Part shown: in pieces, positions 11,314 through 25,812 of the stretch
Layout: each line of letters opens with the position of its first letter
Numbering within the stretch: the first letter of the stretch is position 1
From: an uncultured bacterium
GTDB taxonomy: Bacteria > Oederibacteriota > Oederibacteriia > Oederibacteriales > Oederibacteriaceae
DNA: 32,000 nt
Direction: 5' to 3'
NCBI GenBank assembly: GCA_965112635.1
Contig: OZ218778.1
Coordinates: 730,258-762,257 of the forward strand
The notes under the pieces: model-generated
Told to the model about the DNA's origin: nothing
The model's database searches: none
Seen by the model: only the letters and a program-made list of their open reading frames with translations
Position numbers and translations under genes: made by a program

Positions 11314-11628
11314 TCATTCCTCAGTATCCTGGGTCTTGTGCTGGCTGGAAAGATGGATCAAACCTTTAAGCCCGTCAATAATTTCCAGGACTTCTTTTTG
11401 ATACTTTAACCGATACAGCACATACTGCCCCTTGCTTGTAAATCTGACTAGGTCAGCCATCCGCAGGCTCCGCAATTGATGCGAAACTGCGGGCATGGAT
11501 CGTCTGACCTTTTTAGCCAGCTCGGATGGCGCGCAGGGTTCCTTGGCTATGGCCTCCAGGATCTGAAAAGCCACAGGATTTCCCAGCACTTTGCATACTC
11601 TGGAACAACGGAATGAAGTCTCTTGCAT
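11314..11628 (-). CDS. ArsR-like winged-helix transcriptional regulator (copy 1)
   Basis: LGNPVAFQILEAIAKEPCAPSELAKKVRRSMPAVSHQLRSLRMADLVRFTSKGQYVLYRLK. ATG at 11628 has GGAGAGGAG upstream (ORF track start GTG 11643). Confidence 0.88.
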   Translation of the reverse strand: MQETSFRCSRVCKVLGNPVAFQILEAIAKEPCAPSELAKKVRRSMPAVSHQLRSLRMADLVRFTSKGQYVLYRLKYQKEVLEIIDGLKGLIHLSSQHKTQDTEE

Positions 11629-11693
11629 ATTTCTCCTCTCCACCGATCTAAATAATGGGGATCCACAAATACGGATAATATCCTATTTTCGCA

Positions 11694-11711
11694 TTTTCGC
11701 AATTGCGAAAA
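11694..11711. promoter_or_regulatory. Perfect 18-bp palindrome, putative operator of ArsR copy 1
   Basis: TTTTCGCAATTGCGAAAA, 66 bp upstream of the ArsR-1 ATG. Confidence 0.65.
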
Positions 11712-11855
11712 CGTGGAAATGTCACATCTTGGGATTTAGATCAAGGACTTCAAAGCGCTACATGGGAATTAAAAAAACCCGCGGGGGAGGCGGGAGAATC
11801 CTATGCTTGCCTGGGGTCTAATTCCCTTTTGCAAGAAATAACTCCTGGCCCCGGT

Positions 11856-12299
11856 TCATTTCAGGTGAGAGCCATATCCTTCTAGGAGATCAGGAAACTC
11901 GGTAAGGAGAAATTCTTTGGCGTTCACTATCAGGGTTTTTCCCGTTTTTTTCAGCACCAGCAGGTCAAGGTCGCCCGTGACCAGATAATCAGCCCGGCTG
12001 GCTTTGGCCAGGTCCAGGACAAAAATATCCTTGGGATCTCTCAACTTTTGATGTATGCCTGGGCTTTTAATTTCAAAGGGAACAGTATAGGAAAGTATAT
12101 CTCCCAAAACCTTGTCCAATTCACTGTCTGAGAGCCCGAACTTCTTTCCCTGCAGAGTATGGGCCAGCTCTTTCAGTACCTCAGGAGAACAAACCAGCTC
12201 AATGAGCTCATGCCGGGCCAGTCCCAAAAACAGGCGGTTGACGCCCGGCCAGAAAGTGCCTGAAATGTAAACGTTGGTATCCGCAACCACTCTTACCAC
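11856..12299 (-). CDS. PIN-domain toxin-like nuclease
   Basis: 147 aa (GTG start) MVRVVADTNVYISGTFWP...LRDPKDIFVLDLAKASRADYLVTGDLDLL matches the PIN-family toxin pattern. Confidence 0.88.
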   Translation of the reverse strand: MVRVVADTNVYISGTFWPGVNRLFLGLARHELIELVCSPEVLKELAHTLQGKKFGLSDSELDKVLGDILSYTVPFEIKSPGIHQKLRDPKDIFVLDLAKASRADYLVTGDLDLLVLKKTGKTLIVNAKEFLLTEFPDLLEGYGSHLK

Positions 12300-12301
12300 T
12301 G

Positions 12302-12559
12302 CTACCGGCTCTCTTTGACCAGGCGGACAATGTCAGCTTCTTTTAAGTGAGCAAACCCTTTCTTTTTGGCCAGCGTTTCGGCCCATTGATAAAGATTCTT
12401 TGAACTTGGTTTGGAAACAACCCCTTTATTTTTTAGATAAAGCTCCAGGGATTCTTCAATAACCCCGCCGATGGTCTTATCTTCCTGCAGGGCTATCCTT
12501 TTGGTCATTTTTAGTAACTCCGGGTCCAGCCTCAGCGTGGTCTTCATGGATGTGATCAT
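12302..12559 (-). CDS. Ribbon-helix-helix-type antitoxin-like protein
   Basis: Start moved to ATG 12559 (GGAGGGACCT upstream): MITSMKTTLRLDPELLKMTKRIALQEDKTIGGVIEESLELYLKNKG. Ends 2 nt before the PIN GTG start. Confidence 0.78.
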   Translation of the reverse strand: MITSMKTTLRLDPELLKMTKRIALQEDKTIGGVIEESLELYLKNKGVVSKPSSKNLYQWAETLAKKKGFAHLKEADIVRLVKESR

Positions 12560-12579
12560 AGGTCCCTCCTCTCTTTGCT

Positions 12580-12603
12580 TGCCATATTGCCATATAGATG
12601 GCA
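12580..12603. promoter_or_regulatory. Putative toxin-antitoxin autoregulatory operator
   Basis: Tandem TGCCATAT (12580-12587, 12588-12595) running into the imperfect palindrome TGCCATATAGATGGCA (12588-12603), just upstream of the antitoxin start. Confidence 0.5.
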
Positions 12604-12661
12604 CGAAGTCAAGTTGGAACAAGGTTTTCGTATAACATAATGTCCAGGTTGGTAAATTGCA

Positions 12662-12706
12662 AGGCGGGGATCGCTGAACCTTCATTTTTTGCATGTCGCA
12701 GGTCAA
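12662..12706. repeat. Direct repeat copy A (45 bp)
   Basis: GGCGGGGATCGCTGAACCTTCATTTTTTGCATGTCGCAGGTCAAG; 42/45 identical to 14401-14445. Confidence 0.85.
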
Positions 12707-12765
12707 GCTCGTCCTAAAGCGTGCCCTGTAGGCACATGGACCTCCCCCGAAATAATGGGCACCTC

Positions 12766-13791
12766 TTACGGCCGGGTAACTTCTTGCACCATTTTTGGAA
12801 AAGCTCCCTGAACATTATTTAATTTAAATCTGGATATGCCTACTCTTTCAATGCCTGTTTCCCATCCGTCCCTGGCGTTATACCATATCCAAAGTTCATT
12901 CCCAACTTTTCTCATATCTAGCTGGTAGACCAAGGCGTCTTTCCAGCCTTTTTCCGGGGCTATGATCGGGTTAAAAGGCAGGTTGTACCACTCCATACCG
13001 TCTTTGGATAAAAGGAAATGAATGGCTGAACGGGAACTGCCTTCTTTGTCTTTATAAATGCCGTTGTTGAATCCCAAAAATATATTTTCTGTCCATTCAT
13101 AGTAAACCTTCAGGCCTCCGGCCCCCATATTTCTGTACGGATCATCCGGGTTTGGTCCTATGACGGGAAGAGGGTGTTTTTTATAAGGTCCCATGATGTT
13201 ATTGGAAAACGCAACGCCGTTATAAACCGGTTCCTCATAACCGCAGTCAGGAAGCAGGACTTCCCCGGAAGCATAGTACAACCTGTATCCTTCCGGGGTC
13301 TTTGTTATACAGGCGTTTCTGACCACTGGTCTTGACCTGAAGCTTTCTTTTTCCCAGGGAAGGCCGGGTCTTAATATGACCTCATCCTTTGTCCAGTTTT
13401 TCAGGTCTTTTGAGGATCTTACCGCTATGCAGCATTCACCTTCAATAAACCAGGGTCCGTGGTGGAACATATAAAAAGTGCCTTTGTCCTTGAAAACGAA
13501 CGGGTTCCATCCGGGTTTGAATCTGTCTAAAGCTTTCCAGTTTATACCGTCATTAGAAACCATATGGTTAATATAAGTATCCCCGCTTACCGCGTATAAA
13601 TGCCATTTCCCGTCCGGACTGGTTTCAGGCATGATAATGGTAGGTTCTCCGACAACCTGTGTGTTAAAGGGAGGATTGATAATGGGGTTTCCTGGATGAT
13701 CGGCCCATTTATCCCACTGAACCTTTTTTAGAAGCTCGGGTGAAAATACTTCTTCCGGGTTACTTTGGATTAAGCCGTTCTTGTTCTTCAT
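12766..13791 (-). CDS. GH43/GH130-like five-bladed beta-propeller glycoside hydrolase/phosphorylase-family protein
   Basis: 341 aa; GEPTIIMPETSPDGKWHLYAVSG...HMVSNDGINWKAL, WNPFVFKDKGTFYMFHHG, IAVRSSKDLKNWTKD, FLLSKDGMEWYNLPFNPIIAPEKGWKD: blade-repeat motifs of clan GH-F/J-like proteins. Confidence 0.7.
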   Translation of the reverse strand: MKNKNGLIQSNPEEVFSPELLKKVQWDKWADHPGNPIINPPFNTQVVGEPTIIMPETSPDGKWHLYAVSGDTYINHMVSNDGINWKALDRFKPGWNPFVFKDKGTFYMFHHGPWFIEGECCIAVRSSKDLKNWTKDEVILRPGLPWEKESFRSRPVVRNACITKTPEGYRLYYASGEVLLPDCGYEEPVYNGVAFSNNIMGPYKKHPLPVIGPNPDDPYRNMGAGGLKVYYEWTENIFLGFNNGIYKDKEGSSRSAIHFLLSKDGMEWYNLPFNPIIAPEKGWKDALVYQLDMRKVGNELWIWYNARDGWETGIERVGISRFKLNNVQGAFPKMVQEVTRP

Positions 13792-13865
13792 AGACCCTCC
13801 TCTTTACGAAAACCCCGCCCCCGCCCTCAAGGTGCGCGTCCATGAGGACGTTAAGGCGGGGAAGT

Positions 13866-14180
13866 TTATTCCTCAGTATCCTGGGTCTTGTGCTGGCTGG
13901 TCAGATGAACCAAACCCTCCAGCCCGTCTATGATCTCCAGAATTTCCTTGGGGTATTTAATCCTGTAAAGAACATATTTATTTTTTGTCGTATATCGAAC
14001 TAAATCTGCCAAACGCAAGCCTTTCAACTGATGTGAAATGGCCGATATGGTTCTTTTGAACCTTTTGCTCAACTCAGATGGGGTGCACGGTTCCTTAGCA
14101 ATAGCCTCAAGAATTTGAAAAGTCAAAGGATTGCCCAATACCCGGCATAGCCTGGAACAACGATATGCTGTTTCTTTCAT
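13866..14180 (-). CDS. ArsR-like winged-helix transcriptional regulator (copy 2)
   Basis: LGNPLTFQILEAIAKEPCTPSELSKRFKRTISAISHQLKGLRLADLVRYTTKNKYVLYRIK. Paralog of 11314-11628; both end HKTQDTEE. ATG at 14180 has GGAGAGGAG upstream. Confidence 0.88.
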   Translation of the reverse strand: MKETAYRCSRLCRVLGNPLTFQILEAIAKEPCTPSELSKRFKRTISAISHQLKGLRLADLVRYTTKNKYVLYRIKYPKEILEIIDGLEGLVHLTSQHKTQDTEE

Positions 14181-14238
14181 ATTTTCTCCTCTCCACACAA
14201 GCCATAAGATACAAACCCCACAATCCCTTATTCTACCT

Positions 14239-15540: not shown

Positions 15541-17517
15541 TTATATTATTGCAAAACCAACATCTTTTAAATATTCAAAAGTCGGATCATAATAGTCTCG
15601 CTTACGCGTTTTATCCTCTGTGTCTCCCTGCGGTACTACCATCACCATACCTTGCCGAGCACGGGTTAACAAAACACGATATGCATTTTTCAAATAGTTT
15701 TGCCTTTCTTTCTTTTTAATATGATTCCAGCTCTCACCGCAAAAGGACCAATGCTCCCAACCTTTTTTTGAATATCTAAAATCAGCATCCCAGGCTACAC
15801 ATGACCAATCAAGCTCAAGCCCCTGGACTGCGAATTCAGTCGCAACATCTTCTAAATAATATGACGAGCGCACATCCTCCTTGCCATCAAGAAACCAATG
15901 AATCGGATCCATAGGAGTTTTCACATCTAGAGCATGAGGTTTTAACCGCTCAGCTTGAGAAGAAACCACAATGCCATATCGTTCTGAACCGCGGGCTTGG
16001 CTTCTTAACCATTTCTTTGCTTTAGTAAGATCCCGAGTAAGGACTATCGGATATTTTTCTTTTACATTGGCCAATGTTTTTCGTGCTTCATCAACATTAA
16101 GGTCTAATAGTTGCTTCACAAATAGCGAAACATTCTCCGCACGGAACGAACGCATAGAGACACCTAGATGTAATTCATTTTTGTAGGTAACATTTTCTCT
16201 AAGTTCAATTTTTTTCAAAACCTCACCAGCACCATATTCGCTATCTGTGAGCCGCGAGGAAATATAAATATCCCAATTGGGATATAAATGATTTAATGAT
16301 TCTATCCATTCGCTAATCCCAGCCTCGCCGGTGTTTATTTCCTGCCCTCCCCCCACAAGGCAAACAACAACGGCCCAATCCGTATGGCGATCTAAACAAG
16401 AAATTAAAAAATCCGGTTCCGATCGATTAAAATTAGCTACATGCTTTCTGCGGGTCATAAAATTGGTGGTTTGTTCCCTATTCCAAGCTCGTTGGGCCTC
16501 ATCAAACAATGCAACGTGTTCAATTGGTGGTTTTTTTGAATCAATCAGACATTCATCACGAAAATTATGAACATTCTGGATAAACATCTTAACCCCAGAC
16601 ATAACTTCGCCTTTTTTTACTTTGATCCCTTGCTCTTTCTCATGACGCACTTTATCTCTTGCAAGGGCCTCGCGTAGCACAGCAACAAGAGGCCCATTGC
16701 CAGATAAAAATACACTGTAAAGGTCATTCGATTTATCTATGTGCTGAGTAGCAATATTTAGACCAACCAAAGTTTTACCCGCACCAGGCACACCAGTGAC
16801 GAAACAGATAGATTTGCGCGAATTTTGTTTAGATAAACTAATGATTTTTGAAATAGCATCAGAGGTTTGACTCAGATTGATAGCGCTGGCATCCCTTCGA
16901 GAAATATCATGTACTGAATGGCCGTTATAAAGGGCCATAGCTGCCTCAATAATAGTCGGGGTGGGACAATAGCGTCCTTGTTCCCACTGACTTTGATTAA
17001 TGGCAATACCTTCTGTAAAGAGCAATACATTCTTTATCACTTGGCCAAGCAATGCCACAGTGCTTCTAATAGGAAAAAGAAGTTTGTCATTCTGCGGTGT
17101 CATTGCCACAACAGGAACGGCATGGTGAGCATTGGTAGCTACAAGGACTGGAGCAACAAATTGCTCATGACTCGATTCGTGGAAGTTTTTAAGGTCCAGA
17201 GCATAGTCACAGACCTGATCTAAAGCACCAGAATTAAATTCCTTTTCACCAATTTTAAATTCAAGCACAAAAATCGTAGAGCCTATTAGCAGCACCACAT
17301 CAATTCGCTTGCCCATACGAGGTATTGAATATTCAAAATAAATCGATCCCTGATTACCAATAAGGGCGTTTTGCAGAATATTGATTTCTTCTAACCATGC
17401 ATCACGTTGGCTTTGGACCAAATCAAAATCATTATTGCGTGCAAGTTGACCTAGAATTTCATCAGGATTTGTTTTAAGGAAAATAGCTATTGAACTAGAA
17501 TAATATTCTCGTTTCAT
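15541..17517 (-). CDS. DUF2075-type SF1-like ATPase/helicase with N-terminal PD-(D/E)XK-like region
   Basis: 658 aa; N-term [20 protein letters not shown] (D...ExK), Walker [14 protein letters not shown], Walker B-like [14 protein letters not shown]-terminal [17 protein letters not shown]. Confidence 0.85.
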
Positions 17518-17545: not shown

Positions 17546-18502
17546 TTACCTTTTAAATCTTTCACTTGAATGCCATTCCAAAAGCTCTTTGTTTGGGCGG
17601 TAATTTTCTTGAACTGGAAGTCTAATCTTCTTGTGATCATAGGAAAAATAATACTCCCCGTTATGAAACTCTTCTCTAAGTTTATTACTAACTCTAATCT
17701 CGTAATCCGGAGTGACTGTGACATATCCCTGGTCAAAGAGAGAATGAAAATCCGAACGTAGACAGAGTCCATTATCAAGCCTATGATCTCCCTCTCTAGC
17801 AACTGGTCGGATATGGGCTGCTTCCAGGACAGGTACTACCTTTTCTGCTGTCATGGCGCATTTTCTATCATATAAATCTAAGATCATGACTCTGAAGGTT
17901 CCTTGTCCCAATCGCATTTTTACTAATCGGGGATCGCCATAAATTTTACCTGTAATCTCATGTATTTCTGGTTGTTTAATATCTATCGTCTCTGCTGCTA
18001 TGAGTTGTTTTTTATTATTAAGAGAACCTTTTATTCTCATCCAAATCTCCCGCATCGGAGAACTCTCTGAATCATACGTCTTGCCCTGTACAATATTTAA
18101 AGAAAAATCCTTAGGAACCGGAATCCAGTCTTTTTGTTCGAGATAAAATAGATCTCCTAAAATAATACATCCTATTGAGTAATCCTCCCTAGGATTTTCA
18201 TTAACTCTGCGGTATTTAGCTAATCGGTGTCTCATATCTTCTAGAGTAGCTACTCCGTTTTTTTCCTCAAATGCATTCCAGGCGATACTGATTGGTAACA
18301 ATGAGGAATGACGAAAAAAACCTCCCCCTACGATAAAATTATTAGGGGCATGAAGTTTAAAAAGAAAGGGTTCCCCAACTTGGAGAGTATGAAATTGCCT
18401 GTTTCCACCCGGTTGCCAAAAATTTACCTCGTCAATGTCTTGGCGTTGGCTAAGAAAATCAAACCAATCTTTATCAGTGATCCCAACATAAATATTCAAC
18501 AT
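17546..18502 (-). CDS. HNH endonuclease (putative restriction-type) with N-terminal PUA/EVE-like region
   Basis: 318 aa; C-term VPVLEAAHIRPVAREGDHRLDNGLCLRSDFHSLFDQGYVTV (HNH core). N-term YVGITDKDWFDFLSQ...GEPFLFKLHAPNNFIVGGGFF looks like a PUA-superfamily reader domain (inference). Confidence 0.85.
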   Translation of the reverse strand: MLNIYVGITDKDWFDFLSQRQDIDEVNFWQPGGNRQFHTLQVGEPFLFKLHAPNNFIVGGGFFRHSSLLPISIAWNAFEEKNGVATLEDMRHRLAKYRRVNENPREDYSIGCIILGDLFYLEQKDWIPVPKDFSLNIVQGKTYDSESSPMREIWMRIKGSLNNKKQLIAAETIDIKQPEIHEITGKIYGDPRLVKMRLGQGTFRVMILDLYDRKCAMTAEKVVPVLEAAHIRPVAREGDHRLDNGLCLRSDFHSLFDQGYVTVTPDYEIRVSNKLREEFHNGEYYFSYDHKKIRLPVQENYRPNKELLEWHSSERFKR

Positions 18503-18532: not shown

Positions 18533-20914
18533 CTATAAAATTGCAATGAATTCGCCCAGAATCTGGATGTCGTTTTCATTCTCGGGTTTGAGTTTTATAG
18601 GTTGATACTGCACATTTAATGGTAAAAGTGTTATTTCTTCGTGCTTCCAAGTCTCATCACTGCTGACAGTCTTTTTCGATGAATATAATTTAACTGTATA
18701 TGACCCGCCTGTGTCAGGGTCTGCCGGGCCGCGATACTGGGCTAAAACTATTTTACCCTGCCGCGAACCCTCTGGGTTGGCTCTGAAAACGCAATAGTCC
18801 CCATCCTTTATCTTCGGCTCCATGGACCTGCCTACCACCTGCGCCACGAACATTCTTTCATTCAACCTCCCCAAGCCCTTTGCCTCTACCCAGCCCTCAG
18901 GCTCGACTGCTTCGCCTTTCCCAAAATATCCGGCAGCCGCCTTAAGGGAATAAACAGGAAGTAAGGTTTTGAAAGCCTCATTCCCCGCTGTTTTCCTGAA
19001 TAAGGGAACAACCTTTTCCTGGACCTGCGCCTGGGATATTTCCATCCGGGACCTGAAGAAATTCTCTGTTTCTTTGTTAGTAAAATACACATAGCAACCC
19101 CGCATAGCTCGTGAAAGCAGGGTTCGATAAATATTCCTGACATAGGTTTCAAAACTTTCTTTTTTCATCTTCAATGTTCGGTCTTCAGTGGCCGAGATAT
19201 CCGCTTTTAAACTGTCCGATGGGGCATCGTAAACCAGGTCATTGCCGATAATTACCCCTATATAATCGAACTCAAATCCCTGGGCCGTATAGATGCATCC
19301 GACCTGCTTAAACCCTTCGGGCTTATACGCCCACTCATACCAGCGCACATATCCCTCTGGGGGCCTGGTGATGTCACCATGTGTTTCCCAGGGCATAGCA
19401 AAATTGCCTATCCTGACATCGTTTACCAGTTGGCCGTTCCCATCCAATTTCTTACTCCAAGGCCAACAATAACCGGCTACGATCCTGGCAGAATTCGGTT
19501 TTTCTTCTTCCCTCTTTTGCAACTCCTTATACATTTCCTGTGGAGTATCAAATATCCTGAATTCAAATTTGTCATCTTTCCTTAATAATCTTTTCTCGGA
19601 CTGGTAACCCAGAACAGATTCCAACCAAAGCAGATAATCATTTGAACCCATGCAACGGAACTGTGTCACTAATTCAACCGTATCAATAGAACACCCCTGT
19701 TTTTCGGCGGTTTCCCTGATCAATTCAGACCCGCCTATTTCCTGGGACCGGACATTTTGCTTATCATCTATAAAAAACACGACGGTTTTGGCGCAACGAA
19801 TGAGTTGGTCTATCTGGGGCATATCGGTCCTGTCCTCGGCCTTAGTGAATTGGAAGTTACTTTTATTGCCTATGCGGTGGGCTTCGTCGATCAATAACAG
19901 ATCCAGCTCGTTCGACTTTATTTTGGAAGGGACAAACCGGTATAAATTAGAAAAAAGGATTTCGCTTTCCGGTCCAACAAGGTTTTTTATGCCCTCAATG
20001 AAAGGTTTTGACTTACAGCCATAAAATACTTTGTATTTGGAATGAGCTGCCTCAGCCAGTAAATTGATAGCGATAAGAGATTTTCCTGTCCCCGGGCCCC
20101 CATGAACAATGATGACCGATTTTGTTTTAGTTTTTTTCGACCGTCTTATTTTGGAAAGAATAAGATTTTTCGCTACCAATTGCTCATTTAAAAGGGAGAA
20201 AACAGCCTTGTTTTGTATAACTGCGCTGACATGGTCCAGTAATTTTTGAGAGGGCTGGATTGGGCTTTGCATAAACCTGTTGAATATTTCAAAACCATTA
20301 CCGGATGCCAGCAAATTCTTTATCTTATCAGCCAGTAATTGGGCATCGTCTTTTGAATAAAGGGGATGGTTTTCGATAATTTTTTTAAATTTGGGGGCGA
20401 ATAAACCCTCCCCCTCCTGTTTTTTATAATTATGGCAATAAGAACAGCTGAAAAGTATAAGGGGAGGTTGCTTTTCGAACTCGCTGACAAAATATTTTAA
20501 AAAATTATGGTAGCCCTCGACCTGTTGGGATGGATGGGCCACTACTTTGCTGCTGCCGCCTGTATAGGTCTCGACAAAATTGCCCTCATCATTTAATGGC
20601 TCAACAGATTGCCATTGTTTCAATTCAATCAGGACAATATTTTCCTGCCTATCAAGACCTTTCCCGAACAACAGGCAATCAATGCGGTTCTGGTTATAGG
20701 GAACCTCATACTCAATGGCTATCTGATTATCTTTTAAACCAGCCAACTCGATCAGGTCACGGACCCTGGGTAGTGAATTTTGCCAGGAATTGACCTCCGC
20801 GAATCCAGGCTGCCTGCCGATCCTCTCCTTAAAAGTTCCGATCATGATGTCTGTAAGATGGTTTTCCCTGACATCCTGGATAAACTTTTCGGTCGTATTC
20901 TGATAGATCAGCAT
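18533..20914 (-). CDS. Three-domain fusion: PD-(D/E)XK-like nuclease, DUF2075 SF1-like helicase, LexA/S24-like peptidase
   Basis: 793 aa; YNQNRIDCLLFGKGLDRQENIVLIELKQW; VIIVHGGPGTGKSLIA; LLLIDEAHRIGN; TAQGFEFDYIGVIIG; YRTLLSRAMRGCYVY; C-terminal AQVVGRSMEPKIKDGDYCVFRANP...SYTVKLYSSKK (Ser and candidate Lys of an S24 dyad). Confidence 0.85.
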   Translation of the reverse strand: MLIYQNTTEKFIQDVRENHLTDIMIGTFKERIGRQPGFAEVNSWQNSLPRVRDLIELAGLKDNQIAIEYEVPYNQNRIDCLLFGKGLDRQENIVLIELKQWQSVEPLNDEGNFVETYTGGSSKVVAHPSQQVEGYHNFLKYFVSEFEKQPPLILFSCSYCHNYKKQEGEGLFAPKFKKIIENHPLYSKDDAQLLADKIKNLLASGNGFEIFNRFMQSPIQPSQKLLDHVSAVIQNKAVFSLLNEQLVAKNLILSKIRRSKKTKTKSVIIVHGGPGTGKSLIAINLLAEAAHSKYKVFYGCKSKPFIEGIKNLVGPESEILFSNLYRFVPSKIKSNELDLLLIDEAHRIGNKSNFQFTKAEDRTDMPQIDQLIRCAKTVVFFIDDKQNVRSQEIGGSELIRETAEKQGCSIDTVELVTQFRCMGSNDYLLWLESVLGYQSEKRLLRKDDKFEFRIFDTPQEMYKELQKREEEKPNSARIVAGYCWPWSKKLDGNGQLVNDVRIGNFAMPWETHGDITRPPEGYVRWYEWAYKPEGFKQVGCIYTAQGFEFDYIGVIIGNDLVYDAPSDSLKADISATEDRTLKMKKESFETYVRNIYRTLLSRAMRGCYVYFTNKETENFFRSRMEISQAQVQEKVVPLFRKTAGNEAFKTLLPVYSLKAAAGYFGKGEAVEPEGWVEAKGLGRLNERMFVAQVVGRSMEPKIKDGDYCVFRANPEGSRQGKIVLAQYRGPADPDTGGSYTVKLYSSKKTVSSDETWKHEEITLLPLNVQYQPIKLKPENENDIQILGEFIAIL

Positions 20915-20923
20915 TAAAGGCCC

Positions 20924-21280
20924 CTAAAGATCGGTATATTTTTTAGCGCTACCTTTGGCGAGTTTGACCGGATACTTGCGGGCGTTTTTCTTGATCTTGT
21001 CATGGGCACAGCGGATGGGGTCAACGCCCAGCATATCGCAAAGTTCCGTGAGATAGACCAATACATCGCCTATCTCATCTTTGACTTTTTTGAGGTCGGC
21101 TTTAGAAAGGTTTTTGCTTTGGTTCTCGGTCAGCCATTGAAAATGCTCCATAAGTTCTGAGGTCTCTACTGCAAGCGCCATAGAAAGGTTTTTAGGTGAA
21201 TGGTACTGTTCCCAATCACGGTCTTTTACAAATTTCTTTAATTTTCTGGAAATTTTTCTTAACCCACCTTGATTTCCCAT
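20924..21280 (-). CDS. MazG-like nucleotide pyrophosphohydrolase
   Basis: ATG 21280 with GGAG upstream (ORF track start TTG 21286). MALAVETSELMEHFQWLTE...KDEIGDVLVYLTELCDMLGV: ExxE...ExxD metal-binding pattern. Confidence 0.87.
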   Translation of the reverse strand: MGNQGGLRKISRKLKKFVKDRDWEQYHSPKNLSMALAVETSELMEHFQWLTENQSKNLSKADLKKVKDEIGDVLVYLTELCDMLGVDPIRCAHDKIKKNARKYPVKLAKGSAKKYTDL

Positions 21281-21286
21281 TTTCAA

Positions 21287-21874
21287 CTACTCCACCCTAA
21301 ATATTTTAAGAAAATGTGACCTTGGTAACTCTGACTCATAGGACAGCCCGATATTGCACTTATCAAAATAACCGTCGCCCTCAGTCCATATTTTAAATGT
21401 CTTGGGATATTTACTCAGATATTTCTTTGTTATACGAAGACCTCTGCCACCAACCTTTAGTCTAAATAGATCATGTCTATTTTTTGGATTATTAAAATAA
21501 TTTCTCATATATGCATCTGTAAGATAAATGAGAAATTTATTTTCAGCTGTAAAATTTAGCAATTTTGAAATATCCCAAAATATTTGGCCCGCACCTTCGG
21601 TATAACCCGAATCTCCACCCCTGTGATATTTGAATTCAATAGCTACATTGTTATTTTTGTCATTCGAACATGCGTAAAAGTCCAGTTTATCTTTTTTGAA
21701 CAATTTATTTTTGAATGGATGTTCTAGGATAATATTCTCAGGTTTGTATTTTTCTTTTTTGGTAAGCGCGTAAAAAAAAGTGTAACGAATTGAATCTTCC
21801 GAATCATTAAAATCCCTGTCTTTCTCCAACCTTTTCTTAATTAATTCTGTAAAGTAACTAAATACTGGGAGCAT
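21287..21874 (-). CDS. Small putative PD-(D/E)XK-fold nuclease-like protein
   Basis: 195 aa; KLDFYACSNDKNNNVAIEFKYHR gives a D-x(n)-ExK signature. Its stop lies inside the RBS region of the MazG-like gene. Confidence 0.5.
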   Translation of the reverse strand: MLPVFSYFTELIKKRLEKDRDFNDSEDSIRYTFFYALTKKEKYKPENIILEHPFKNKLFKKDKLDFYACSNDKNNNVAIEFKYHRGGDSGYTEGAGQIFWDISKLLNFTAENKFLIYLTDAYMRNYFNNPKNRHDLFRLKVGGRGLRITKKYLSKYPKTFKIWTEGDGYFDKCNIGLSYESELPRSHFLKIFRVE

Positions 21875-22896: not shown

Positions 22897-24045
22897 TTAC
22901 CGCATTATCTTTCCCGACCAAAGTTCTTCCAGAAAAATATTCCAGGGCAGTATCCGGATGTTTCCCATCTTACGGGGTTTCGCGTCCCGTGATACCAGCA
23001 GCGCCTCTTTGACGCGGTATTCTTCCTGGAATGCTCTGAGCCCCCTGGCGTGGCGGTCGTCGGCGGTTTGGGCCGCTTTAACTTCCACCACCACTTCATG
23101 GTCCCCCAGGATAAAATCCACCTCCAGCTGTGAGGCGGTCCGCCAAAAGCACACCGGGTAATCCAAGCCGCTGTAACGGCTATGGGCCCAGATTTCCTGG
23201 AAAAGGAAGTGCTCAAAGGCCTTGCCAAAGGACTCGCCCCCCTCGGAGACTTTCCCGCGTTTCAAAAGATGGCCGGCCACCCCGACATCAAAAAAGTAGA
23301 ACTTGGGCGCCTGGATGACCCTGCGTTTGGGATTTTTCCTAAAGGAGGATATCTGGGTCGCCACCAGGGTATCCTCCAGGATCTGGAAATATTCCTTTAC
23401 CGTCGGCGGGCTGATGCCGCATTCCGTGGCGATATTTTGGTAGTTGAGGATCTCCCCATTGCTGAAGGCCGCGGCTTCCAGAAAACGGGCGAAGGCGGGG
23501 ATGTTGCGGGCCAAAGCCTCGGCGGCGATCTCTTCTTTTAGATAGTCCCCCAGGTAAGCAGCCATAAGTTTTTCGGCATCCTCGACCAGGTAATGCCGCG
23601 GCAGGAGGCCGTGGTTCAAGGCTCTGGTAAGGTCAAACCCGGGTATTTCCGCGCTGACCAGGGGGTGCAGCTCGTACCTCAAGGCCCGGCCTCCCAGCAG
23701 GTTGGCCCCGGAACGTTTCAGTTTCCGGGCGCTGGAGCCGCACAGGATAAAGGAGAGATGGTGGTTGACGATCAGCCATTGGATCTCATCCAGCAAAGCC
23801 GGGCACTTTTGGACTTCATCAATGATAATGGGGGTCCCGGGAGCCGGAAGCGCGGCCAGGATCTCCTCCCTCAAAAGAGCGGGATGCCGCGACAACCGGG
23901 CGTATTCGTCTGACAGGAGGAGATCGTAGTAGGGCGCTTGGGGGAAAAACTCCTTTAACAGCGTACTTTTCCCGGTCTGCCTGGCGCCCCAAAGAAAGGC
24001 GCTTTCGTTTTTTCGTCCCTGGAAGGTCTGCAGTCGTTTAAACAT
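22897..24045 (-). CDS. AAA-family ATPase with DUF4143-type C-terminal domain
   Basis: 382 aa; WGARQTGKSTLL, TPIIIDEVQKCPALLDEIQWLI, ILCGSSARKLKRSGANLLGGRA, CFWRTASQLEVDFILGDHEVVVEVKAA. Confidence 0.93.
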   Translation of the reverse strand: MFKRLQTFQGRKNESAFLWGARQTGKSTLLKEFFPQAPYYDLLLSDEYARLSRHPALLREEILAALPAPGTPIIIDEVQKCPALLDEIQWLIVNHHLSFILCGSSARKLKRSGANLLGGRALRYELHPLVSAEIPGFDLTRALNHGLLPRHYLVEDAEKLMAAYLGDYLKEEIAAEALARNIPAFARFLEAAAFSNGEILNYQNIATECGISPPTVKEYFQILEDTLVATQISSFRKNPKRRVIQAPKFYFFDVGVAGHLLKRGKVSEGGESFGKAFEHFLFQEIWAHSRYSGLDYPVCFWRTASQLEVDFILGDHEVVVEVKAAQTADDRHARGLRAFQEEYRVKEALLVSRDAKPRKMGNIRILPWNIFLEELWSGKIMR

Positions 24046-24345: not shown

Positions 24346-25812
24346 TCAACCTTTTATGGTAGCTAAAGGCCTTAATTTTGCCACCTTTTTGGATATGCCC
24401 AACTGGTGTACCACCTCCACAACCTCATTGACATCTTTGTAGGCCTCCGGGCTTTCCTCAGCCACAGTCCCGCTATCCCGGGCTTTTAAAAATACCCCGT
24501 ATTTTTCCATCATTTCCCTGGGGATATTATGCCCCTGCCCCAGCTTGAGGGCCGCGGTCCGGCTCATCAGCCGGCCTGCGCCGTGGCAGGTGGAACCAAA
24601 AGTCTCCTTCATAGCCAGGTCCGTGCCTTTGAGCACATAGGAGGCCCTGCCCATATCCCCGGGGATGAAGACCGGCTGGCCGACGGGCCTGTATTTGGCC
24701 GGGATCTGGCTGTTTCCCGGCCCAAAAGCCCGGGTAGCCCCTTTGCGGTGCACGCAGACCTTGCGGAGCTTCCCCTGGACCAAATGTTCCTCGATCTTGG
24801 CGCTGTTGTGGGCCACGTCATAGACGAGTTCCAGCCCCAGGTCCCGGGCTTTTCTTCCCATTACCTGGCTGAAGGTGTCCCGGACCCAGCAGGTGATGAG
24901 CTGGCGGTTGGCAAAGGCGTAATTGACCGCACAGGCCATAGCGGCCAAATAGTGGCGGCCCTCCTTTGATCTAATGGGCGCGCAGGCCAGCTGGCGGTCA
25001 GGCAAGTCAAACCCAAAATCCCCTTTTTTGCTGTTGAGGAGTTTCAAATGGTCGTCGCAGACCTGGTAACCGAACCCCCTAGAGCCGGTGTGCAGGAGAA
25101 CGGCCGCCTGACCCAAAAAAAGCCCGAAGGTTGTCGCGGCTTCTGCGTCGTAAATTTCCTCCACCACCTGTATTTCCAAAAAATGGTTGCCCGAACCCAG
25201 AGTGCCCAGCTGTTTTTTGCCCCGCTCCCTGGCCCGAAGACTCACCAGCTCCGGGTCCGCGCCAATATAGGAACCTGTTTCCTCGATGTATTCCAGATCG
25301 TCAAAATCATCCTGGCTTTGGCCAAAACCCTGCTCCACCACCCAGCCCGCGCCTAAAGCGCAGACCTTGGCCGTGTCCTGGGGCGAAAGTTTGACCTTGC
25401 CCTCAGACCCCACGCCGGTGGGGATGTTGTCGTAAAGTTTCAGGATTAGTTTTTTCAGGACATCAGCAGGAAGGTCCTTTAGGCTGAGCTGGGTCCGGAG
25501 CAGTCTCACCCCGCAATTGATGTCATAGCCCACTCCGCCCGGCGACACCACGCCCTCGTCGCAGTCCATGGCCGCCACGCCTCCGATGGGAAACCCGTAG
25601 CCCCAGTGAATGTCCGGCATGGCGTAAGAGTAACGCAGGATGCCCGGCAGATGCGCCACATGGGCCACCTGCTCCAGAGCGTTATCATGCTGCATGGCCC
25701 GCATCATGGCCTCGCTGGCCAGGATGCGTCCCGCTACTCTCATGCCGGCCTCGCTGTCCTGGGGGATCTCCCAGCAGTAGTCGTTGATCTTTTTTATCTT
25801 AACTTCCATCAA
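24346..25812 (-). CDS. rtcB: RtcB-family RNA ligase
   Basis: 488 aa; GVAAMDCDEGVVSPGGVGYDINCGVRLLRT, LGSGNHFLEIQVVEEI, LVYDVAHNSAKIEEH, VHRKGATRAFGPG, FGSTCHGAGRLMSR. Confidence 0.97.
   Translation of the reverse strand: MMEVKIKKINDYCWEIPQDSEAGMRVAGRILASEAMMRAMQHDNALEQVAHVAHLPGILRYSYAMPDIHWGYGFPIGGVAAMDCDEGVVSPGGVGYDINCGVRLLRTQLSLKDLPADVLKKLILKLYDNIPTGVGSEGKVKLSPQDTAKVCALGAGWVVEQGFGQSQDDFDDLEYIEETGSYIGADPELVSLRARERGKKQLGTLGSGNHFLEIQVVEEIYDAEAATTFGLFLGQAAVLLHTGSRGFGYQVCDDHLKLLNSKKGDFGFDLPDRQLACAPIRSKEGRHYLAAMACAVNYAFANRQLITCWVRDTFSQVMGRKARDLGLELVYDVAHNSAKIEEHLVQGKLRKVCVHRKGATRAFGPGNSQIPAKYRPVGQPVFIPGDMGRASYVLKGTDLAMKETFGSTCHGAGRLMSRTAALKLGQGHNIPREMMEKYGVFLKARDSGTVAEESPEAYKDVNEVVEVVHQLGISKKVAKLRPLATIKG

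Follow-up and report, generated by a model that had tools for sequence, protein, structure and literature searches.

LexA, UmuD and lambda CI, autoproteases of the S24 family (MEROPS), dock on filaments of RecA on single-stranded DNA (RecA-ssDNA, or RecA*) and then cut their own chain; LexA and CI carry the S24 core at the C-terminus and the cargo at the N-terminus. Nhi (S. epidermidis SERP2475) and Nhi-like anti-phage enzymes, each encoded by a single gene, join an N-terminal nuclease to a DUF2075 helicase (10.1101/776245; 10.1101/2022.05.11.491447), and enzymes of this type act on phage replication intermediates (10.1101/776245). The type I restriction enzyme EcoKI is silenced post-translationally under DNA damage or hypomethylation (PMC4231737, PMC11109961), and human SLFN11 couples the DUF2075 type of helicase to replication stress and ssDNA (PMC6765204). 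Features of these systems appear together in a single gene of an uncultured bacterium of the Oederibacteriaceae, which lies in a stretch of 32,000 nucleotides (positions 730,258 to 762,257 of contig OZ218778.1, assembly GCA_965112635.1; the window in what follows). Its product has a putative nuclease, a DUF2075 helicase and a C-terminal S24 tail that is predicted to cleave itself, and tails of the same clade are found on many unrelated DNA-targeting defence enzymes. The parts of the gene are given below in window coordinates, with residues of the protein in amino acids (aa).

18533..20914, minus strand: whole gene, an ATG-started open reading frame (ORF) of 793 aa with its stop codon at 18533-18535, encoding the nuclease-helicase with C-terminal S24 module
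20420..20782, minus strand: putative NERD / PD-(D/E)XK-type nuclease core, about aa 45-165, with invariant D79, E97 and K99 and a CxxCH motif, called with the help of NERD matches in orthologs
19079..20122, minus strand: DUF2075 / Schlafen group 3 helicase-ATPase, aa 265-612, Pfam PF09848 (SLFN-g3_helicase)
18962..19039, minus strand: variable linker, aa 626-651, beginning at the end point of S24-less orthologs
18917..18961, minus strand: cleavage-site region LPVYSLKAAA-GYFGK, aa 652-666, with the predicted scissile bond A661-G662 (codons 18929-18934)
18536..18856, minus strand: S24 catalytic core, aa 687-793, from Pfam PF00717 and the tail profile
18824-18826, minus strand: codon of Ser697 (in GRSMEP), aligned on LexA S119
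18689-18691, minus strand: codon of Lys742 (in YTVKLY), aligned on LexA K156

A preliminary description, made from the sequence alone, had read this gene as a single 793-aa ORF. The minus-strand frame is indeed uninterrupted from its ATG, and every motif quoted at the time is present in the translation. With coordinates re-derived, these are RIDCLLFG...VLIELKQW (aa 77-101), GGPGTGKS (aa 272-279) and LLLIDEAHR (aa 339-347) in the N-terminal half, and VVGRSMEP (aa 693-700), DGDYCVF (aa 704-710) and YTVKLY (aa 739-744) in the tail. An identical protein is present in independent assemblies (sources NCBI, ENA and Logan), and the three-part architecture recurs in 49 of the best 120 homologs, all of 750-830 aa, aligned through the S24 region and 54-65% identical; together these place the fusion far beyond chance. 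The 49 fusions come from metagenome-assembled genomes (MAGs) labelled Deltaproteobacteria, Planctomycetota and Omnitrophota. S24 is recorded in precomputed Pfam matches for most of them, the catalytic Ser and Lys are present in all, and automatic annotations recognise both domains, as in 'DUF2075 family protein/phage repressor protein C with HTH and peptisase S24 domain'. False merging of a helicase gene with an adjacent gene for a small S24 repressor, by annotation or assembly, is so improbable that it was set aside, given the continuous frame in the window, the recovery of the same protein from independent assemblies and the 49 independent full-length fusions across phyla. A copy that would fit such an artefact comes from a cultured strain, Halomonas sp. 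PA16-9 (NZ_CP040452.1, 1652241-1654627), where the core is encoded in one reading frame and the S24 part in another as a result of either a frameshift in a pseudogene or a sequencing error, in a record with hardly any annotation. A homolog is also present in the cultured strain Lysobacter enzymogenes ATCC 29487 (locus L067).

The tail had been called S24-like, and this assignment is borne out by a Peptidase_S24 (PF00717) match at aa 659-789 (E-value 1e-10; 41.7 bits, above the gathering score of 23.3), which covers a LexA/UmuD-type site and a Ser-Lys dyad. Used alone as a single-sequence query against the PDB the tail found nothing, because its identity to LexA is too low, and matches came only with a profile. 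A profile built from 32 tails matched the LexA C-terminal domain (1jhe, E 2.4e-8) and UmuD' (1umu, E 7e-7) over the whole domain and also, weakly, lambda cI, with the site and the dyad in register across the matches. The C-terminal tails of the 49 fusion homologs were likewise aligned with E. coli LexA and UmuD. In this alignment LPVYSLKAAA-GYF falls on LPLVGRVAA-GEP of LexA (A84-G85) and on C24-G25 of UmuD, while Ser697, Lys742, Gly695 and Met698 are invariant (49/49). The P1 residue is Ala in 30 fusions and Cys in the other 19, and P1' is Gly in 43 of the 49. The cleavage site lies about 35 residues upstream of the catalytic serine, and the best-conserved positions of the tail are those of the cleavage-site region and the catalytic motifs.

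The homology to LexA, UmuD and lambda CI thus runs over the whole catalytic domain, with the GxSM serine, the T-V-K lysine and the Ala/Cys-Gly site in register. Unlike these proteins, the window protein carries a 625-aa nuclease-helicase as cargo instead of a DNA-binding domain, and its clade has two insertions relative to LexA, with D732, G737, S746, W756 and H758 nearly invariant. Pfam matched no helix-turn-helix (HTH) or LexA_DNA_bind domain in the window protein, whose N-terminal 625 aa are taken up by nuclease and helicase, so that the protein is no repressor of the LexA type. The tail belongs to the S24 family on all the sequence criteria tested, and it reads as a complete LexA/UmuD-type autoproteolytic module.

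S24 domains also have properties that are separate from cleavage. The C-terminal domains of LexA and UmuD dimerise and bind the RecA filament groove on their own, and the PDB entries of LexA, UmuD and cI C-terminal domains matched by the tail profile include several complexes with RecA filaments (8gms, 8gmt, 8gmu and 8trg). Many restriction enzymes need two copies for a double-strand break. The tail could on these grounds be a dimerisation or filament-targeting domain that pairs or recruits nuclease-helicase motors, with self-cleavage slow or incidental. This is quite unlikely, as the 49 fusions show little or no variation in the dyad, the GxSM motif and the Ala/Cys-Gly site, and the full motif set is kept in 118 of 143 representatives of the wider S24 clade (AAA-G in 73 and AAC-G in 33, together 106/118); such invariance would not persist were catalysis irrelevant.

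The other 71 of the best 120 homologs are about 625 aa long, have no S24 and are 65-71% identical to the window protein over the common part. They end 15-16 aa past a GCYVYF motif, which is where the linker starts in the window protein (about aa 625). The stretch from GCYVYF to the cleavage-site region is 42-61 aa long in 43 fusions and poorly conserved after its first 15 or so residues. Placed on a neighbour-joining tree of the cores, the presence of S24 needs at least eight gains or losses, and the tail appears to be an accessory add-on to a natural C-terminus that has been gained and lost. A cut at A661-G662 would therefore yield the equivalent of a natural S24-less ortholog with a 36-aa tail ending in ...LKAAA. 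The GC content of the S24 module (18536-19039) is 0.476 and that of the remaining gene (19040-20914) 0.427, which is weakly consistent with a separate origin. A variant found in an Enterobacteriaceae MAG had no match among 5,426 complete E. coli genomes, and viral contigs held only three relatives, none of them with S24.

The tail has a history that differs from that of the core to which it is attached. When aa 640-793 were used as the query, the S24 termini of proteins with other architectures were 59-72% identical, among them XRE-HTH+S24 proteins, another DUF2075 subfamily and proteins that end like Res-type helicases or HsdR. By comparison, the window tail is at most 56% identical (median 49%) to the tails of its own orthologs, though their cores are 56-72% identical, and the reverse case is seen in the homolog P0243, with a core that is 34% and a tail that is 64% identical. 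An exhaustive search of 1.84 billion representatives returned 168 proteins at E < 1e-30, many of which are 400-1969 aa long and carry the module as their very C-terminus, and the fragment that would be freed by the predicted cleavage has a median length of 135 aa across the clade representatives. The partner domains found by Pfam scans are listed here, with counts out of 60 clade proteins.

ResIII: 17/60
DUF2075: 12/60
Type_ISP_C: 6/60
DEAD, with or without MZB: 6/60
Eco57I / MmeI methylase-nucleases: several
Methylase_S, N6_Mtase and T1RH-like_C (HsdR): several
RE_AlwI, RE_LlaJI, RE_endonuc, HNH_4 and GIY-YIG: individual cases
SLFN_AlbA_2, DUF3427 and UvrD-like helicases: individual cases

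S24 domains of this one clade are thus carried by type I, ISP, IIG and III-like restriction enzymes, by LlaJI, AlwI, HNH and GIY-YIG nucleases, and by DUF2075, UvrD and DEAD helicases; the type ISP-like P0362 and the MmeI-like P0293 are examples of restriction enzymes with such a tail. The comparisons indicate that restriction and defence enzymes which target DNA but are unrelated to one another have acquired the module, lost it and swapped it among themselves, and judged from sequence it is catalytically equipped, conserved, portable and, in its predicted action, self-targeting. We propose on this basis that the clade is a portable plug-in that would wire the RecA*/SOS signal post-translationally into at least 12 unrelated DNA-targeting immune enzymes, either as a built-in control of autoimmunity (restriction alleviation) or as a damage-triggered arming device, a proposal to which we give about even odds. 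The module is also seen on a 208-aa standalone protein, P0237 (loci L007-L009), in which it follows a remnant of about 57 aa resembling the C-terminus of Res-type helicases; the gene precedes an operon of an N6_N4 methylase and a DUF87 ATPase and is found on 21 contigs.

The closest S24 relatives of the tail include XRE-HTH+S24 repressor-like proteins with 60-66% identity. This likeness would suit a decoy or guard, in which the tail mimics the domain of a phage CI-type repressor and detects antirepressors or further factors by which phages target S24 repressors. The genomic contexts of the XRE-S24 relatives, inspected for clues as to which way the switch works, were housekeeping regions and uninformative in that respect. 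That two such proteins sit in housekeeping and not in prophage contexts speaks against a decoy, as do the conserved catalytic residues and cleavage site, which point to genuine autoproteolysis, and we regard this explanation as very improbable.

The N-terminal part of the protein had been described as PD-(D/E)XK-like. Its D79, E97 and K99, in a D...ExK pattern, are invariant in an alignment of 60 homologs (alignment A1), and two orthologs, P0015 and P0028, exceed the NERD gathering score (26.1 and 25.4 bits against 22.1). In the window protein itself the N-terminal 240 or so aa gave no Pfam match, even at E 10, so that the assignment holds indirectly, through orthologs and motif conservation, and the region is probably a nuclease of NERD/PD-(D/E)XK type. 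The DUF2075 helicase proposed in the same description is confirmed by a near-full-model match to PF09848 (E 8e-84, model positions 1-353 of 354) with intact Walker A (GGPGTGKS, aa 272-279) and Walker B (DEAH, aa 343-346) motifs, and G272-K278, D343 and E344 are invariant in the 60 homologs. Also invariant in this alignment are C157-x-x-C160-H161 (aa 157-161; window 20432-20446) and further core cysteines at positions 300, 421, 483, 540 and 607 (C300, C421, C483, C540 and C607), which suggests a putative metal or cluster site that is unaccounted for by the domain models.

The order of nuclease and DUF2075 helicase is shared with Nhi and Nhi-like enzymes, as is the location of the gene in a low-GC, defence-type island. 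Unlike Nhi, the window protein has an additional S24 module and its gene a conserved MazG-like partner, and the PADLOC Nhi model gives only a partial match (aa 240-405, model positions 182-316 of 470, E 1.8e-12). The PADLOC candidate PDC-S41 has the same broad architecture and a common N-terminal region (aa 3-291, E 1e-20). However, it has no S24, and the fusion reaches 71.7 bits against its model, compared with 951 bits for a true PDC-S41 protein encoded nearby. As these matches are partial only, the fusion falls outside the Nhi and PDC-S41 sequence families. A search of the PDB with the whole protein as a single sequence gave no match, and a whole-protein profile gave only marginal ones, to the Walker-A region of HelD, SMUBP-2, SLFN5 and SLFN11. 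Human SLFN11 and other group 3 Schlafens fall under the same Pfam entry, PF09848, and the weak profile matches to the SLFN5 and SLFN11 structures have E 0.06-0.07. Schlafens differ in having another N-terminal nuclease domain and no S24, and they sense ssDNA through RPA or directly and not through RecA. The similarity is at the level of the domain family only.

The neighbouring gene most often found with members of the family is present in the window as well:

20924..21286, minus strand: MazG-like nucleotide pyrophosphohydrolase gene, 9 bp upstream of the fusion ORF, Pfam MazG-like E 5e-16

Its product has intact ExxE and ExxD motifs. A scan of one genome per species gave 80 loci of the family, which spans many bacterial phyla and DPANN, Thermoplasmata, Thermoprotei and Nitrososphaerales archaea. 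With the window copy as query, a MazG-like homolog was found near the family gene in 67/80 loci (16/19 with S24 and 51/61 without), mostly directly upstream on the same strand and often overlapping the start of the family gene, and independent look-ups agree. Because the MazG-like gene accompanies most loci, with or without S24 and in bacteria and archaea alike, it appears to form with the NERD-DUF2075 gene a two-gene unit that is apparently unnamed. S24 itself is present in 19/54 bacterial and 0/26 archaeal family loci (Fisher p = 1.9e-4, not corrected for phylogeny), and a bacteria-only module fits a RecA-dependent function. A RadC-like JAB protein (HxHPSG) is encoded beside S24-less members in nine loci (L023, L037, L042, L070, L079, L082, L083, L086 and L088) and beside none of the 19 that bear S24; the numbers are small, and this protein may be an alternative protease partner.

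The preliminary description had further suggested that the tail could be a damage-responsive switch, leaving it open whether the enzyme would be released or inactivated. The view that the tail is a working self-cleaving switch and not a relic has gained strength from the Ala/Cys-Gly site aligned on LexA and UmuD, from the invariance of the four catalytic-motif residues in the 49 fusions, from the occurrence of the same S24 clade on many DNA-targeting defence enzymes and from the lack of a tail in archaeal family members, which are without RecA, and all of these are consistent with a tail that would still be active.

With a probability of roughly 0.45, we favour the reading in which the gene encodes an Nhi-like defence enzyme, composed of nuclease and DUF2075 helicase, with a MazG-like partner and an S24 module, added by way of a flexible linker, whose cleavage is an off-switch. 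The S24 core would dock on RecA* and then cut its own chain at A661-G662, in the manner of LexA, UmuD and lambda CI, freeing a core of about 132 aa and leaving aa 1-661 with the end ...LKAAA-COOH; the dependence on RecA* is taken from the behaviour of the S24 family. The cut would then serve as a safety off-switch, a form of hard-wired restriction alleviation, and this is the least certain step. The enzyme would be disabled once the damaged host chromosome is full of ssDNA gaps, stalled forks and repair tracts that lack modification. The S24 core of LexA and UmuD is a dimerising domain, and one possible route to disabling would be the loss of S24-mediated dimerisation. Another would be the exposure of an ssrA-like Ala-Ala-Ala C-terminus, which would mark the nuclease-helicase fragment for ClpXP in the way known from the N-terminal fragment of LexA. 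A ClpX degron, with the end VAA-COOH, is reportedly unmasked on cleaved LexA, as Neher and colleagues are said to have found in 2003. Whichever route applies, the mechanism must be a generic one, such as dimer loss or a degron, and not a specific inhibitory contact, since a dozen unrelated folds carry the module and the linker is not conserved.

Several lines of argument favour inactivation. Many of the carriers are classical restriction-modification enzymes, which must restrict entering DNA before any RecA* signal arises. The S24-less orthologs indicate that the core can exist safely without S24. Proteolytic restriction alleviation during DNA damage is, in addition, an established need of such enzymes (PMC4231737, PMC11109961, 10.1101/2024.10.21.619520), which also makes an off-switch the favoured reading. 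The proposed role resembles the type I alleviation in which ClpXP acts on EcoKI HsdR, a proteolytic silencing of a helicase-nuclease against self-attack (PMC4231737, PMC11109961), and HsdR-, HsdS- and type ISP-like proteins bear the same S24 tail. It differs from the EcoKI case, in which stalled translocating complexes are recognised by a protease acting in trans and no S24 domain takes part, in that the trigger would here be built into the enzyme.

The same cut could instead arm the enzyme. S24 would in that case hold the nuclease-helicase latent, as an inactive dimer or with an occluded site, and RecA*-triggered self-cleavage would release the active enzyme, like UmuD giving UmuD', in response to RecA* that forms during prophage induction or on intermediates of phage replication or recombination. 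The evidence for a competent self-cleaving module applies equally to this possibility, and the cleavage product resembles natural, presumably active, S24-less orthologs. Moreover, ssDNA and RecA* would arise at the phage replication intermediates that Nhi-type enzymes attack, and there are precedents for damage signals that turn functions on, namely the CapH/CapP control of CBASS immunity and the activation of UmuD. Nevertheless, the widespread S24-less orthologs, 65-71% identical, imply that the core is under a control of its own and not lethal in itself. The module is also found on classical restriction enzymes, including single-chain methylase-nucleases, that are needed before any RecA* signal, and the variable, unconserved linker and the unrelated folds of the cargo speak against a specific inhibitory contact. 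Activation, though the most serious alternative, is therefore less likely than inactivation, and the evidence on the direction of the switch leans to inactivation but does not settle it.

Some points weigh against an off-switch of this kind. The direction is not fixed by the sequence: in UmuD the same cut is an activating one, and some immune systems are known to be turned on by signals of DNA damage. The conservation of AA(A/C)-G may mirror no more than what the S24 active site requires of its substrate, with no degron involved, and a C-terminus ending in AAC-COOH is not known to act as a ClpX signal. The dependence on RecA is assumed from the behaviour of the family by analogy, and some S24 proteins cleave upon other cues. 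In addition, the contrast in S24 between bacteria and archaea is confounded by phylogeny, and many of the sequences that represent the S24 clade in databases are partial genes from short contigs.

The fusion gene lies in a low-GC island of about 14-22 kb in window coordinates, with a GC content of 0.36-0.44 compared with 0.50-0.62 elsewhere in the window, a comparison that leaves out an intermediate stretch at 10-14 kb. The genes of the island are tightly packed on one strand, in the order 195-aa protein, MazG-like protein, fusion, HNH_2 protein, PDC-S41 DUF2075 protein and 262-aa protein. A promoter and terminator scan of the island gave nothing above chance, and no tRNA genes are present anywhere in the window. 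The other genes in and around the island are as follows.

15541-17517, minus strand: PDC-S41 DUF2075 protein of 658 aa without S24, full-length PADLOC PDC-S41 match (E 7e-287, 951 bits)
17546-18502, minus strand: HNH_2 protein of 318 aa, between the two DUF2075 genes
21287-21874, minus strand: 195-aa protein with a weak HSDR_N_2 match below the gathering score, separated from the MazG-like gene by a 0-bp gap
22897-24045, minus strand: AAA_14/DUF4143 ATPase matching the PADLOC candidate PDC-S01, just outside the island
24346-25812, minus strand: RtcB RNA ligase, next after the AAA_14/DUF4143 ATPase
11856-12299, within 11314-14198 (minus strand): PIN_3 toxin gene
12302-12706, within 11314-14198 (minus strand): small partner upstream of the PIN_3 gene, with a weak repressor-like match
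11314-11643 and 13866-14198, minus strand: ArsR-type HTH genes flanking the PIN_3 pair

A PDC-S41-like gene stands directly downstream of the family gene in 8/80 loci, and the two paralogs may therefore work together. The HNH_2 protein resembles phosphorothioate-DNA-binding restriction endonucleases at its C-terminus and is without a match over its first 190 or so aa; its homologs adjoin the family gene in about eight other loci. The 195-aa protein has no homolog in the other 88 loci.

No publication that describes a fusion of S24 with DUF2075 or with restriction enzymes, or that links the MazG-like/DUF2075 pair, came up in full-text literature searches, and the searched literature held no experimental data on the NERD-DUF2075 family. 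The comparative-genomics papers on defence systems that were consulted make no mention of S24 or LexA, and a match to 'S24' referred to phage S24-1. That so many unrelated restriction enzymes bear the module suggests that bacterial immunity is coupled directly to the DNA-damage alarm in a way as yet unstudied, a general implication of interest to specialists in phage defence and in the SOS response. The locus also defines a widespread, apparently unnamed two-gene system of MazG-like and NERD-DUF2075 proteins in bacteria and archaea. How bacterial nucleases avoid self-attack during repair is understood only for a few type I enzymes, through degradation by ClpXP. A self-cleaving, RecA*-sensing tail would, if the reading is true, be a simple and transferable answer to this problem and would connect immunity with the SOS response at the level of proteins. 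It could provide a ready-made damage-responsive protein switch for engineering, and it would also be a weak point open to phages, as triggering or blocking RecA* would switch the defences that carry it.

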